From positions 45,386 through 109,385 of the IMG/VR virus record IMGVR_UViG_3300029959_000004: a stretch of DNA of 64,000 nucleotides; one strand, written 5' to 3'. Below are positions 1-11,614 of this stretch, piece after piece. The translations under genes were made by a program, and so were the position numbers. Every line of letters starts with the position of its first letter. Position 1 is the stretch's first letter. The DNA is from a virus. The notes under the pieces are model-generated. The model had not been told where the DNA came from and made no database searches. It saw nothing but the letters and a program-made list of their open reading frames with translations.

Positions 1-1583
1 TTATAATAGTTAGCTACTTTATATCCTAAGTTCCGACTTCCTGAATGTATCATAATCCAGATATTATTCTCGGTATCTTTTTGAATCTCAATAAAATGAT
101 TTCCCCCTCCTAAAGTACCGATTTGTTTTAACGCGTTGAAATATTCTTTTTTAATAACATTATAGTTTTCTAACATATCTCTAATTGTTTCTGCTTTAAT
201 TGGCATTAAATTTTCATCTTGTCTTTCTTTATGACTTCCGTCACGCCCGTTTCCAACAGGAATAACTTCTCTAATCTTTCCCATTATCTTCTTTAAAGTT
301 TCTCTATCTAATTGTTCTGATTTTAAAGAAGTCTTAACCGCACACATACCGCAATTATGAACAAATACCCCAGAAGATAAGGCAAAATTATGATATTTAT
401 CAATAGTTAAACAATAAACATCTTCTTTTTTATTTATTAGTTTAATTGAAATAATTTTATGATTTTTTCTATTTTTATTCCAATAAGCTCCAAAACCATA
501 TTTTTTACCAATTTCAGAAGATTTGACTCTTCCTTTTTCAGATTTGTTATATTGAATTAAAAATTTCTTTCCTCTTTCTCCAGCTAATTTAGCTTGTTCT
601 TTAAATTTTTCAGTTTTTGAATAATTAATCCAATTTTGTATTGCGTTCTTTTTTACAATTTCTTGGAAATCTTTTCTTTGATGTAATTTTCTCATATTTT
701 CTGATGCCATTTTAGAAAATAAAATGGGATTATTCTTTCTTGCTATTTTAAATCCAACGATACCTAATTTAGAGTTTTTACCAACATTTTTATAATGTAT
801 TTCCCAATGTTTTTTCCAATTAACTCGTTTTATGTTTGTAGGGTTATTGTTATATTTATTAAAATCTATATGGTGTCTAACTCCTTTAGTTTTTTTATAA
901 ATACCATTTAATATATTAAACTCATCTGCTAAAATATGAATATAGCGATACTTATTATTCTTAGGATTATAAATTACATTATAATCTTTCATTTTTTCTT
1001 TTTTAAATTGATGCTCAAATTCAATATCTTCCACTTCAAATGCTTTATTAATGTAAATTGGCATTAACGATTGTCCAATTTTTAATTTTTTCGCTCTAAT
1101 TTCTTTATTTTCTCTATCATAAAATATATGATCTTTAGTGCATTTAATTATTTCATTATTATCCAATTTTATTTCTAAAAGTTCGTTGGCAATTCGTGTT
1201 TTTCTGGGACTATTAATTTTTGATATAACAATATTTGATTCTTTATCCAGAGAGTAACAAAAATTTTCTTTACCTCTATTATATTCTTTAATTAATTCTA
1301 AAAATGATAAATCTCTTCCATCAGTTAATTTAACTTTTGTATCACCAGTAAAACATCCAATATCAACACCTACTGCATTAGGTATTACTACTTTCTTAGT
1401 AGCTAATACTCCACCAATAGGCATACCAAATCCTTGATGACAGTCCGGCATTACCGCTATGTGTTTGAAAGCGAATGGTAAATTGGATAAATTAACCAAT
1501 TGTTTCACAGCTCCGTCTTCTATCTCATCTAACCACATCTTTATTGGAACTTTTTGTTTATCTGTATCATATATTACTTTCAT
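1..1583 (-). CDS. rtcB: RtcB-family RNA 2',3'-cyclic phosphate/5'-OH ligase, intein-interrupted, runs off the window at the 3' end
   Basis: Absent from the ORF track; translated by hand from ATG 1583 (SD GAGGAG upstream): MKVIYDTDKQKVPIKMW...AVMPDCHQGFGMPIGGVLA...PNAVGVDIG[intein]CGMCAVKT...QIGTLGGGNHFIEIQ...IMIHSGSRNLG. These are the RtcB MPDxHxG, DIGC, GNHF and HSGSR motifs. Confidence 0.95.
   Translation of the reverse strand, partial: MKVIYDTDKQKVPIKMWLDEIEDGAVKQLVNLSNLPFAFKHIAVMPDCHQGFGMPIGGVLATKKVVIPNAVGVDIGCFTGDTKVKLTDGRDLSFLELIKEYNRGKENFCYSLDKESNIVISKINSPRKTRIANELLEIKLDNNEIIKCTKDHIFYDRENKEIRAKKLKIGQSLMPIYINKAFEVEDIEFEHQFKKEKMKDYNVIYNPKNNKYRYIHILADEFNILNGIYKKTKGVRHHIDFNKYNNNPTNIKRVNWKKHWEIHYKNVGKNSKLGIVGFKIARKNNPILFSKMASENMRKLHQRKDFQEIVKKNAIQNWINYSKTEKFKEQAKLAGERGKKFLIQYNKSEKGRVKSSEIGKKYGFGAYWNKNRKNHKIISIKLINKKEDVYCLTIDKYHNFALSSGVFVHNCGMCAVKTSLKSEQLDRETLKKIMGKIREVIPVGNGRDGSHKERQDENLMPIKAETIRDMLENYNVIKKEYFNALKQIGTLGGGNHFIEIQKDTENNIWIMIHSGSRNLGYKVANYY
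354..1355 (-). mobile_element. Intein (334 aa) with HNH-type homing endonuclease domain, inside rtcB
   Basis: Starts CFTGDTKVKLTDG, ends EDVYCLTIDKYHNFALSSGVFVHN, followed by Cys+1. 1002 nt, in frame. Internal RHHIDFNKYNNNPTNIKRVNWKKHWEIH is an HNH motif. Confidence 0.93.
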
Positions 1584-1603: not shown

Positions 1604-1861
1604 TTAGTTTTTAGAATCTTGATGTGAAATTCTATATTCCCAATTCCACCAATCTTCTATAGTTCCTACATAAAATGTACCTTTTCTTTCTACAAAACAC
1701 AGCCACGCTTTAACTTCTCTTTTATCTTTTGTAATATCTACAACTATAGGAAACCAAGCAAACCACTTGTGCCATTCTTCAAGTTTTTTTATTTCTTTAT
1801 CTTTAATTTCTTTTTTCAATCTTACTATATTTTCTTTTGTATAACCATTAGTCCAAATCAT
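1604..1861 (-). CDS. Hypothetical phage protein (WHKWFAWFP type)
   Basis: ORF with SD AAGGAG, which is part of hammerhead stem III. Confidence 0.75.
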   Translation of the reverse strand: MIWTNGYTKENIVRLKKEIKDKEIKKLEEWHKWFAWFPIVVDITKDKREVKAWLCFVERKGTFYVGTIEDWWNWEYRISHQDSKN

Positions 1862-1866
1862 CTATT

Positions 1867-1921
1867 CTCCTTTCGGGCTTATTTAATGCCCTCATCAGTT
1901 AATGAATTACATTAAGAGGAA
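1867..1921 (-). ncRNA. Hammerhead ribozyme, type III
   Basis: Minus-strand RNA UUCCUC^UUAAUG-UAAUU-CAUUAA-CUGAUGA-GGGC-AUUAAAUAA-GCCC-GAAA-GGAG. Intact CUGANGA/GAAA core, three stems, CUC triplet with predicted cut between 1916 and 1915. Loop I UAAU is complementary to loop II AUUA. Confidence 0.93.
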
Positions 1922-2465
1922 CAATCTAAGTAGTAGATTTTTTAGAAATAACTCTCCATTGTCAATAGACCGCCAACAAAAAACACAAAACCTAAAAATA
2001 ACCAACACAAAATAACTATTTCTCGTCTTTCTATTCCATAACAACCACGAAACACACTATCTATATCTCCCAAAGTATGATCCATCTCTTGACCGCTTAT
2101 TTGATACATAGCTTGTTGATATTCAAGAGATTTTTCTTTCATTCTAGAAGTTGTTTCTAGTCTGCTTATTAAAGTATCTAATATCTTTAATTGAGTAGAT
2201 TTAGTCATTCTTTCCGTTTTAAAGATATAGTTAGCATGTTCTTCGCTAATATTACTAACTTTTTCTCTGTATTCCTTAAAATACATCAGTTTATCTTTAG
2301 CTGTTGAAGCGTCATCCGCTAATTTTAAGAACTGTTTATATTTTACCTCGTAGTTATATGCAATATCAACTCCGAGAATTGTTCCTAAAACAAAAAACAA
2401 TATTGCAAGACCAAATAATAGAAATTTCATTCTTATCTCCTTTTTTGGTCTACTACTTAGATTGT
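1921..2465. repeat. Perfect 17-bp inverted repeat (1921-1937 / 2449-2465) bracketing gene 1942-2430
   Basis: acaatctaagtagtaga and tctactacttagattgt are exact reverse complements, both intergenic. Confidence 0.95.
1942..2430 (-). CDS. Membrane protein with N- and C-terminal TM helices flanking a soluble domain
   Basis: Hydrophobic residues 3-24 and about 138-158; SD AAGGAG. Confidence 0.8.
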   Translation of the reverse strand: MKFLLFGLAILFFVLGTILGVDIAYNYEVKYKQFLKLADDASTAKDKLMYFKEYREKVSNISEEHANYIFKTERMTKSTQLKILDTLISRLETTSRMKEKSLEYQQAMYQISGQEMDHTLGDIDSVFRGCYGIERREIVILCWLFLGFVFFVGGLLTMESYF

Positions 2466-3052: not shown

Positions 3053-3170
3053 ACTCTCTTTCTAATTTAACTATCTCTTCCTCTAATAAAATCTTCTCGT
3101 CTTCTGTTAAATCCTTAAAAATTACGTGAGCCTCTTTCATTAACTTAATAATATTTCCAACTTTTTCCAT
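3036..3170 (-). CDS. Small hypothetical protein (44 aa)
   Basis: MEKVGNIIKLMKEAH...; SD AAGGAG directly after the second hammerhead. Confidence 0.6.
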   Translation of the reverse strand: MEKVGNIIKLMKEAHVIFKDLTEDEKILLEEEIVKLEREFDNEK

Positions 3171-3181
3171 TTTTATTCTCC

Positions 3182-3247
3182 TTAATTGGTCTCATTCAGT
3201 TTTGTATTAAACAAAAGACGGAGATAATGTAACTCTCCGTTTCGACC
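3182..3247 (-). ncRNA. Hammerhead ribozyme, type II with pseudoknot, 1-nt core insertion variant
   Basis: Minus-strand RNA GGUC-GAAA-CGGAGA-GUUACAUUA-UCUCCGUC^UUUUGU-UUAAU-ACAAAA-CUGAAUGA-GACC-A-AUUAA. Stems II, III and I all pair; GUC triplet with predicted cut between 3217 and 3216. Loop I UUAAU pairs with the 3' AUUAA. Core reads CUGAAUGA instead of CUGANGA. Confidence 0.82.
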
Positions 3248-3379
3248 TTATTTAAGTATTAACCAAACTAATATAATAATAGAAATATATATTAGATGTA
3301 TAAACCAAGGAAGAACCTTCCCTCCTAAGACTAATCCTAAGAAGAAAGCTATGAATTTTCCTTTATTCTTATCTTCCAC
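3248..3379 (-). CDS. Small membrane protein (43 aa)
   Basis: GTG start with SD AAGGAG; MEDKNKGKFIAFLLGLVLGG...ISIIILVWLILK. Confidence 0.55.
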   Translation of the reverse strand: MEDKNKGKFIAFFLGLVLGGKVLPWFIHLIYISIIILVWLILK

Positions 3380-7677: not shown

Positions 7678-7959
7678 TTATTCTCCTAATATAGAATTAA
7701 CTAACTTATTAGTTTCATCTGAAGTAATTTCTTGTTCTATTTCAACGTTTTCTGGTAGTTTTTTATGTTTTAATAACAAGCTAATCCAGTCTTTATGTTT
7801 GCAGTAATTACGATATATTCCAGATAAACAAGAGCAAACATATTGTTTTTTGTCTTTTACTAATCTGTAATTCTGAGAAAACTCTCCATTTAAGAACTTA
7901 GATATTACATATTCCGAAGAATTTTTCTTATGTACTATATAATTTATATCTTTGTGCAT
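7678..7959 (-). CDS. SWIM zinc-finger protein
   Basis: YVCSC...YCKH fits CxC-x(n)-CxH. Confidence 0.8.
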   Translation of the reverse strand: MHKDINYIVHKKNSSEYVISKFLNGEFSQNYRLVKDKKQYVCSCLSGIYRNYCKHKDWISLLLKHKKLPENVEIEQEITSDETNKLVNSILGE

Positions 7960-8724
7960 TTATTTTATAACCTCAACTCTAACATTTAACAATCCATCAT
8001 TAATATTTCCTATTCTTTTAAATGCCTCCGGAGTTAAATCTATTACTCTACCCGGTTTTAGTGTACCGCAATCATTATGACGTACTATAACTGACTTTCC
8101 ATTATCAATATTAGTTACTTTATAAGATTTTCCATAGGTTTTAATTCCTTTCTTTAATGCACAAGTTAATTCATTAGCATTAAAGCGTTCTCCTGTTGCT
8201 GTAATTGTATCCTTATAAAAAGAAGCTTTACCTATCATAACTTTAACTCCAACTAAATTGGCTCTAATATAATCTAAATTCAATCCTTTTCCTGGACATT
8301 CCTCGTGATGCCTTTCAATATTACTAATTCTCAACTGATTTAAAAGAGATATTAACGACTTTTTTTGTGCTTCCGTAAACTTATCATTACCGGTTAAACA
8401 TATTCCAACTAAATTATTGCGACCTTTAGAGTGAGCTCCTATTTTATTGATATTACGACCTTTTTCAATACTACCATCTGTTCTAATTACAAAATGATAT
8501 CCAATACCATCAAAACCTCGTGCTTTATGCCAAGTATCAATAGTTTTAGCACTTACATCCGCAGAAGCCGAATGATGTATTACAGCTCTGCTAAGATCCA
8601 TTTGCGATATTGTAGCATTTATCTTCTTTATAGCTCTATTTCTAGTATGCCCCGCAGCAAAAGCTGAACTATTGAATACTAATAAGAAAACCAAAGCTAA
8701 ATATATTTTCTTTTTGTTATTCAT
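7960..8724 (-). CDS. Signal-peptide lysin: Amidase_2 N-acetylmuramoyl-L-alanine amidase fused to RlpA-like double-psi beta-barrel
   Basis: Signal ending SAFA; VIHHSA, IGYHFVI, GAHSKG, HHEECPG (T7-lysozyme-like Zn amidase); GKASFY...TATGERFN...LTCA...VTNIDNGKSVIVRHND...GRVIDLT..AF (RlpA). Confidence 0.88.
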   Translation of the reverse strand: MNNKKKIYLALVFLLVFNSSAFAAGHTRNRAIKKINATISQMDLSRAVIHHSASADVSAKTIDTWHKARGFDGIGYHFVIRTDGSIEKGRNINKIGAHSKGRNNLVGICLTGNDKFTEAQKKSLISLLNQLRISNIERHHEECPGKGLNLDYIRANLVGVKVMIGKASFYKDTITATGERFNANELTCALKKGIKTYGKSYKVTNIDNGKSVIVRHNDCGTLKPGRVIDLTPEAFKRIGNINDGLLNVRVEVIK

Positions 8725-10834: not shown

Positions 10835-11614
10835 GTGATAGACAAAACGAAGAAAAGAGTTCTGACTGAAGACTCACCATATAGAGATAAAGCGGATGTT
10901 AATATAGTAAGTAAGAGAGCGTTGAAATTAGGTGTAGAGGGTCTTTTTACAGACAAAGAAGAAATTAAACTAGCTAAAGAGCTAGAAAAGAAGTATCTGA
11001 CTGAATACAACATAGAAACAGTCTCAGATAAGAATCTATTATACTATCTAATCTACTTAGAGGTATTACATACAGCAAAGCTTCAAAAAACAGCTAACGA
11101 GTTCACCGTAAGCAATGATAACCTACCGTTGCAACTTCTAGATGCAATTCACAAGAATATAAATCAAATAATAGAGATTAAAGATAAGCTTGGACTTACA
11201 AAAAAAGAAGAAGTCTCAAACGACGCTTATCAGTCGTTGGAGCTTCTGAAGAAGAAGTTCAAAGTTTGGGCAGAGAACAATCAGGCTTCACGAACTTTAG
11301 TATGTCCTCACTGTTCACAGATGATTATGTTAAAGATGCGTACAGAAGCTTGGGAAGCTCAAAAACACACATTTTTTAAAGACAGACTACTGGGTAATGA
11401 ATCGCTAATACGTCTCTATAAGTTAGGAAGACTAACTAAAGAGGAAGTAGCTTCCGTTTTAGGTACTAGTTCAGACTATACAGAGTGGCTGATAAATCAT
11501 TGGAGTGTAGATGTAAACACTCCTTCCAAAGCAGGCATACACTCTGAACAAGAAGCTACAGAAGTTAAGAAAGAAAACAATGTAGAAAAAGAAATTGTTC
11601 AAGAAGAAAAGTAG
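10835..11614 (+). CDS. Putative terminase small subunit
   Basis: Position before the large terminase; helical, CPHC motif, C-terminal HTH-like segment. Confidence 0.45.
   Translation: MIDKTKKRVLTEDSPYRDKADVNIVSKRALKLGVEGLFTDKEEIKLAKELEKKYLTEYNIETVSDKNLLYYLIYLEVLHTAKLQKTANEFTVSNDNLPLQLLDAIHKNINQIIEIKDKLGLTKKEEVSNDAYQSLELLKKKFKVWAENNQASRTLVCPHCSQMIMLKMRTEAWEAQKHTFFKDRLLGNESLIRLYKLGRLTKEEVASVLGTSSDYTEWLINHWSVDVNTPSKAGIHSEQEATEVKKENNVEKEIVQEEK

Follow-up and report, generated by a model that had tools for sequence, protein, structure and literature searches.

RNase III processing of the early polycistronic mRNA of phage T7 sometimes results in better translation of the downstream cistron. Hammerhead ribozymes have been described in prophages as clusters that flank genes, three of which cleave in vitro as well as in E. 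coli, and it was proposed that long phage transcripts are in this way processed into gene- or operon-length mRNAs; in the same study an insertion after A6 lowered hammerhead activity, and ribosome-binding sites are not mentioned (Perreault 2011, PMC3088659). A 2019 review likewise considers that ribozymes may process polycistronic transcripts or alter their stability or translation; hammerheads number in the thousands in bacteria and phages, and what they do there is still largely open (PMC6765202). Outside phages, self-cleaving ribozymes have been reported to assist translation initiation in fungal and plant RNA viruses (PMC13725137). In the literature on phage hammerheads and translation initiation we found no description of a natural hammerhead with a Shine-Dalgarno sequence (SD) in one of its stems.

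The hammerhead analyzed here, termed HH-III, belongs to an uncultured phage from a groundwater metagenome (IMG/VR virus record IMGVR_UViG_3300029959_000004, 109,385 bp with direct terminal repeats) whose G+C content is about 29-30%. Bases 45386-109385 of this record constitute the window, that is, the whole stretch of 64,000 nucleotides under analysis, and coordinates below refer to the window unless the genome is named. PHROG matches are few in the phage genome and no tRNA genes were found in it. From about position 11,600 leftwards, the genes of the window are densely packed on the minus strand. The features required for the description of HH-III, its neighbors and its two sibling ribozymes (HH-II and HH-I) are the following:

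3188-3247, minus strand: HH-II, a type II hammerhead recognized from the sequence and with a relaxed descriptor, between the stop codon at 3248-3250 and the ATG at 3170
1942-2430, minus strand: upstream gene, 162 amino acids, a predicted membrane protein without family, whose stop codon lies 20 nt before stem III of HH-III
1924-1938, minus strand: small hairpin of 5-6 bp, 2 nt upstream of stem III, seen in the minimum free energy (MFE) fold of the precursor
1867-1921, minus strand: HH-III, a complete type III hammerhead, from direct sequence reading, descriptor scans, shuffles and a covariance model
1917-1921, minus strand: 5' strand of HH-III stem III (anti-SD), which pairs with 1871-1867 and lies on the upstream cleavage product together with C1916
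1915-1916, minus strand: predicted scissile bond of HH-III, 3' of C1916 (C17) and 5' of U1915 (1.1), from the hammerhead consensus
1899-1915, minus strand: stem I hairpin of HH-III, 1915-1910 paired with 1904-1899 (6 bp), 5-nt loop 1909-1905
1892-1898, minus strand: core CUGAUGA (C3-A9) of HH-III, from sequence reading
1875-1891, minus strand: stem II hairpin of HH-III, 1891-1888 paired with 1878-1875 (4 bp, with G10.1-C11.1), 9-nt loop
1867-1874, minus strand: core GAAA of HH-III (1874-1871) and the SD A-GGAG (1871-1867), the latter forming the 3' strand of stem III
1604-1861, minus strand: ORF85, 85 amino acids, AUG at 1861-1859, 5 nt after stem III
3-1583, minus strand: rtcB, 748 amino acids in the full genome, extending beyond the window; Pfam RtcB, 146 bits
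genome 41407-41742 (5408-5743 in L040), minus strand: cREC_REC gene, 111 amino acids; PF20274, 71.5 bits, a cyclic-phosphate processing receiver domain
genome 40376-40501 (4377-4502 in L040), outside the window, minus strand: HH-I, a type I hammerhead with the core CUGAAGA and a stem II of 5 bp

The invariant core positions C3 U4 G5 A6 N7 G8 A9 and G12 A13 A14 are all intact in HH-III, the topology is that of type III (stems I and II closed by loops, stem III open, A15.1-U16.1 present) and the cleavage triplet CUC, formed by C1918, U1917 and C1916, fits the NUH rule. Stem III comprises five base pairs, two of them G-C: the wobble U1921-G1867, U1920-A1868, C1919-G1869, C1918-G1870 and U1917-A1871, the last being pair 16.1-15.1. 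The putative contact between loops I and II, of the kind on which rapid cleavage at low Mg2+ depends, would consist of a 4-bp A/U complementarity, which loops so rich in A and U are likely to show by chance. The AUG at 1861 has a single SD, and this SD is the 3' strand of stem III: GGAG (1870-1867) is followed by 5 nt, a spacing that is ordinary in this phage (14 of 85 genes; the mode is 6). An in-frame UAG at 1864-1862 fixes this AUG as the start of ORF85, leaving none further upstream. Sequence reading thus bears out the original prediction that AGGAG at 1871-1867 serves both as a strand of stem III and as the SD of ORF85, 5 nt before its AUG, and with the predicted cut at 1916/1915 the partner of this strand, 1921-1917 together with C1916, ends up 5' of the break, as had also been claimed. 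The SD could therefore become fully accessible only once the RNA has been cut and this partner has dissociated.

On the other side of the ribozyme, the hairpin at 1924-1938 would form the 3' end of the upstream mRNA after cleavage; a G+C-rich hairpin occupies the matching position in L205, a phage contig described below. ORF85 itself belongs to no Pfam or PHROG family, matched only itself in a search of 5.8 billion proteins, and has weak protein relatives in two viral contigs of IMG/VR, both of which lack a hammerhead. A promoter-like site at 1937-1965 on the minus strand combines a perfect -35 hexamer and a 17-nt spacer with a weak, A-rich -10, and transcripts from it would begin about 10 nt before the hammerhead; it was not counted because such promoter-like matches are about as frequent in the region as in shuffles (69 vs 64).

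Several lines of evidence indicate that HH-III is a true ribozyme fold. When the whole 109,385-bp genome was shuffled 300 times with dinucleotides preserved, no shuffle contained a compact type III hammerhead whose stems reached at least 6, 4 and 5 bp, and 9 of 300 did so at the relaxed limits of at least 4, 3 and 3 bp. A covariance model, termed R1, was built from eight other phage type III hammerheads, with which HH-III agrees in stem lengths. Searched over 121 kb, R1 returned exactly 1867-1921 on the minus strand (45.3 bits, E 1.6e-12, all 15 of 15 pairs standard), its single match in the phage genome, a score that is inflated because five of the eight training sequences share the stem II of HH-III, which was the search pattern. 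The same model also recovered the hammerhead of L205, absent from its training set, with 37.4 bits. Similar sequences are scarce: a distant blastn search of the locus against 50,697 phage records gave one unrelated 78-nt match only, and the exact stem II plus SD pattern retrieved nothing in metagenome contigs. The matches listed for the locus itself include no RNA run and come from four DNA contig sets of groundwater and landfill metagenomes, as the source contig, as identical low-depth fragments and as a landfill relative with 11 differences in 246 nt, the contig of which, among the matches listed, ends inside the hammerhead. Lacking close relatives, the locus offers no covariation. Judged from its sequence, HH-III is very probably a genuine hammerhead and is predicted to cleave itself.

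HH-III does not stand alone. HH-II directly follows a stop codon and stops 5 nt short of the next GGAG, and its core, CUGAAUGA, carries a 1-nt insertion at A6/N7. The 5 nt of tail immediately preceding GGAG could pair with loop I of HH-II, also 5 nt long, at the usual position of the type II pseudoknot, which would thus likely abut the ribosome site of the next gene. HH-I also begins directly after a stop codon; its stem III of about 10 bp encloses an insert of about 70 nt, and an SD and a GUG start are found 13 nt beyond it. All three ribozymes are on the minus strand and each takes up the space that separates a stop codon from the following SD. With a relaxed descriptor, in which loops of up to 130 nt and a core insertion were allowed and which yields 0.9 matches per shuffled genome, stem sums at least equal to those of HH-II, HH-III and HH-I were reached 0.04, 0.17 and 0.003 times per shuffled genome, respectively. 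Together they bracket a 1.3-kb block of four genes and a 6.9-kb block that starts with ORF85 and rtcB and includes the cREC_REC gene. This layout is the known phage arrangement of gene-flanking hammerheads. A fourth hammerhead-like match at genome 13596-13715 (minus strand, outside the window), whose core contains an insertion, whose stem I has 4 bp and whose loops are long, was set aside as being at chance level; it ends in GAAA-GGAG-AUAUG, and such matches occur 0.04 times per shuffled genome.

The reading that we favor, with a probability of roughly 0.55, is that HH-III is a processing ribozyme, one of three on a leftward polycistronic transcript, and that exposure of the SD is constitutive and its masking modest. 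The predicted cut, between C1916 and U1915, falls within the 80 nt that separate the 162-aa gene from ORF85 and would split the upstream four-gene block from the block running from ORF85 and rtcB to the cREC gene. The upstream product would end with the small hairpin and an 8-nt tail carrying a 2',3'-cyclic phosphate, and the downstream product would start with a 5'-OH in the hairpin of stem I, beyond which stem II and then a single-stranded SD would follow. The closing helix would have come to use the SD as one of its strands because the ribozyme is tightly packed between stop codon and start. Paired in the precursor, the SD would be freed as the 6-nt tail of the 5' product dissociates, so that its exposure would be coupled to processing and essentially constitutive, with a masking that is brief, probably modest and not responsive to a signal. 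The cleavage activity of HH-III, the fates of its products and any effect on translation are what we infer from these features.

We then have to consider whether masking of the SD is itself the selected function, with translation of ORF85 depending strongly on cleavage and the ribozyme acting as an insulator or timer that Mg2+, temperature or the kinetics of folding might adjust. The geometry favors this, the SD being wholly contained in stem III and its partner departing on the other product, and synthetic switches with an SD in a hammerhead stem do work in E. coli (PMC7445771). The modelled energies are less favorable. In nearest-neighbour calculations the hammerhead fold reaches -11.2 kcal/mol vs -12.1 kcal/mol for the MFE structure, a register-shifted, inactive fold in which the SD is also paired, a point in favor of masking; the hammerhead-compatible share of the modelled ensemble is about 2%, a figure for secondary structure only, tertiary contacts being outside the model. 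Opening the SD costs 1.47 kcal/mol before cleavage vs 0.92 kcal/mol after it, and opening a 31-nt footprint costs 6.3 kcal/mol in the precursor vs 4.6 kcal/mol in the 3' product at 37°C; at 25 and 15°C the two states differ by about as much. The predicted unmasking on cleavage therefore amounts to 0.5-1.7 kcal/mol for a helix of 5 bp, values that are lower bounds, since tertiary structure does not enter the calculation. The product tail pairs weakly with the SD (-4.8 kcal/mol at 37°C, -7.0 kcal/mol at 15°C) and should thus be released quickly.

Furthermore, no sensor is apparent: the Rfam searches returned no riboswitch family for HH-III, and loops of 5 and 9 nt are too small for a ligand domain, so that with neither aptamer nor sensor cleavage is presumably constitutive. 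In both siblings, HH-II and HH-I, the SD is not part of a helix whose strands part when the RNA is cut. The original prediction had made translation of ORF85 dependent on cleavage; the geometry that it described holds, but the small modelled unmasking, the missing sensor and the unmasked siblings speak against the switch that it implied. A regulated translation switch at HH-III is not supported by this modelling, and masking as the selected function is, in our estimate, unlikely.

The distribution of the layout among other phage hammerheads bears on the same question. In a sample defined by stem II sequence only, most type I and type III phage hammerheads have an SD and a start codon within ~25 nt, as do nearly all the other phage hammerheads that we examined (within about 25 nt). 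An exhaustive scan of IMG/VR in which a hammerhead core had to precede GAAA-GGAG, 3-9 nt and ATG yielded 77 loci, among which no other type III hammerhead is in the register of HH-III, a result that speaks against a function built on masking. At least 21 of these loci are type II hammerheads whose tail leads straight into the SD, and in two type III loci, L063 and L199, the SD starts 0-2 nt after stem III. Two cases in other phages or metagenomes do reproduce the overlap. In L205, a phage contig of 37% G+C without protein similarity to the groundwater phage genome, an A-rich SD forms the 3' strand of stem III in a register shifted by one base, and ATG follows after 5 nt. A metagenome scan requiring both stem III strands of HH-III gave at least four further type III hammerheads, among them L340 (60% G+C; R1 49.5 bits), in which ATG stands 5 nt after stem III and opens a frame of at least 65 codons. 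The other three of the four listed have no start codon nearby, which counts against masking as a function, and a purine-rich stem III is for this reason not in itself the mark of an SD. It is to be noted that the spacer from the end of stem III to the AUG is exactly 5 nt in all three overlap cases (1867-1859 in the window, 776-771 in L205 and about 1210-1202 in L340), although these are unrelated and differ widely in G+C content, a repetition that would fit a masking function.

Across the type III examples, SDs are spread from the interior of stem III to about 10 nt downstream of it, and in our reading the overlap is the compact end of this continuum and looks like compaction. The shared 5-nt spacer in three unrelated cases could nevertheless indicate selection for overlap over mere compaction. 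Taken together, the layout with the SD in stem III is a rare but recurrent variant. As a separate observation, the metagenome contig L280 carries two type III hammerheads on its plus strand, at 2757-2806 and 7951-8001, about 5 kb apart (R1 46.4 and 42.9 bits); L205, L280 and L309 are alike in that stem I has 7 bp and a GUAU loop and stem II has 4 bp and an RAAA loop, which suggests a distinct subfamily of phage type III hammerheads.

A broader version of the masking argument would make HH-III, L205 and L340 members of a natural class, in which stem III is the SD at a fixed distance of 5 nt, translation is licensed only after self-cleavage, and, in the groundwater phage, the ends so produced might be substrates of RtcB and cREC. 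We regard this class as doubtful. If true, it would represent a protein-free coupling of mRNA processing to translation in phages.

The presence of rtcB behind ORF85 raises a different possibility, in which RtcB, together with cREC, religates or circularises the hammerhead-bounded segments and so produces circular or spliced mRNAs, or a feedback on ORF85 and rtcB. Hammerhead cleavage leaves exactly the ends that RtcB joins, and both the 1.3-kb and the 6.9-kb block are bracketed by hammerheads, the latter encoding RtcB as well as cREC_REC, the gene of which shares its block with rtcB. A religated HH-III site would, however, be recut, and phage RtcB is more simply explained by the repair of tRNA or rRNA cut by host nucleases. 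The association is also not general: only one of 17 other phage rtcB loci has a hammerhead within 4 kb, a type I ribozyme on the opposite strand, and this weighs against the negative feedback through RtcB religation that had been envisaged. Circular or spliced products of phage hammerheads were raised as a possibility in earlier work, where they were sought but went undetected (Perreault 2011, PMC3088659). Cutting and rejoining at this locus is accordingly improbable in our view. The further idea that translation of rtcB might be cleavage-dependent is not supported either, since rtcB has its own SD after the ORF85 stop and would not depend on the masked site. All the same, three ribozymes that would produce cyclic phosphates beside the genes for RtcB and a cREC protein deserve attention at the RNA level. 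The rtcB gene is also interrupted by an intein of 334 amino acids at about 354-1355 on the minus strand (Pfam Intein_splicing 67 bits, and Hint), situated directly before the Cys of the RtcB DIG-CGM motif, a conserved metal-binding Cys of RtcB; the middle part of the intein contains an HNH-like stretch rich in His and Asn.

Another view holds that HH-III has the shape of a hammerhead but is catalytically weak or dead in vivo and serves at most as a structured leader. One argument for it is that Rfam misses the ribozyme. The search with Rfam hammerhead models that had been suggested as a check came out empty, no hammerhead family being reported at gathering thresholds in the window or the rest of the genome, nor for HH-III at E<=10 on either 401 nt or 3 kb of sequence; RF00008 gave no match to HH-III at E<=10 on the whole genome either, its gathering score of 48.5 bits not being reached. 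This insensitivity extends to the siblings, since none of the three phage hammerheads is reported by the Rfam hammerhead models at gathering and HH-II, like HH-III, is also absent at E<=10. We attribute the miss of HH-III to seed models that cover short, A/U-rich phage variants poorly, since HH-III has the full structure that defines a hammerhead. The weak, A/U-rich stem I and the lower energy of the competing fold also fit a poor catalyst, as does the core insertion of the sibling HH-II, which is of the kind reported to reduce activity (PMC3088659). Against this, HH-III retains the invariant core, G10.1-C11.1, A15.1-U16.1 and the CUC triplet, its stem lengths match those of eight other phage type III hammerheads, and such preservation in a genome of 29% G+C is unexpected without selection. 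A weak or dead HH-III is therefore an explanation to which we give little credence. The Rfam search further returned a weak preQ1-II match (21.6 bits), which was rejected as reflecting the A-rich SD tail only. Finally, chance resemblance can be practically dismissed: a very relaxed descriptor does yield 0.9 matches per shuffled genome, but the compact one gave 0/300 in shuffles, R1 reports HH-III at E 1.6e-12, and the ribozyme sits in an intergenic gap on the coding strand with two more hammerheads nearby.

HH-III is a probable hammerhead that escapes the Rfam models. Should the effect of masking be small, as the modelling suggests, the locus would be a clean example of tight packing of a ribozyme between a stop codon and a ribosome site; should it be large, the locus would provide a natural precedent for synthetic ribozyme switches of ribosome-binding sites and a function of phage hammerheads beyond cutting.

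Comparison with the described systems places the locus accordingly. HH-III shares with the type III ribozymes of RF00008, known from viroids, satellites and phage, the same core and CUC triplet, an open stem III and loop-capped stems I (6 bp) and II (4 bp), but it falls below every reporting threshold of that family, has A/U-rich loops and is DNA-encoded in a phage operon instead of in a rolling-circle replicon. As in T7 RNase III processing, the cut would be intercistronic, just before a ribosome site, and would give stable mRNAs of a single or a few genes with hairpin ends; in T7, however, a protein makes the cut and leaves a 5'-phosphate and a 3'-OH, whereas cleavage by HH-III is predicted to be RNA-catalysed and to leave a 5'-OH and a 2',3'-cyclic phosphate. 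The ribozymes of RNA viruses similarly fill a short intergenic region or 5' UTR and are cut a few nt before a start codon, but they are eukaryotic, cap-independent and IRES-like elements of RNA genomes, mostly of type I, and do not involve Shine-Dalgarno pairing (PMC13725137). With the synthetic aptazyme switches HH-III has in common an SD paired in a ribozyme helix and a masking strand that cleavage allows to leave; these constructs rely on the extended stem I of a type I scaffold and on an aptamer that modulates cleavage (PMC7445771), whereas HH-III uses a natural 5-bp stem III, has no aptamer and shows small predicted masking. Another parallel is with the prophage clusters of Perreault 2011, in which hammerheads of mixed topology are likewise located on one strand, within a few kb and in intergenic gaps of a phage transcript, and in which a core insertion near A6/N7 occurs, as it does here in HH-II. 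The present locus differs from them in that the SD is a strand of stem III and that the flanked genes include rtcB and cREC. The ribozyme type and its intergenic placement are thus known, and the built-in ribosome site is a rare variant of them.
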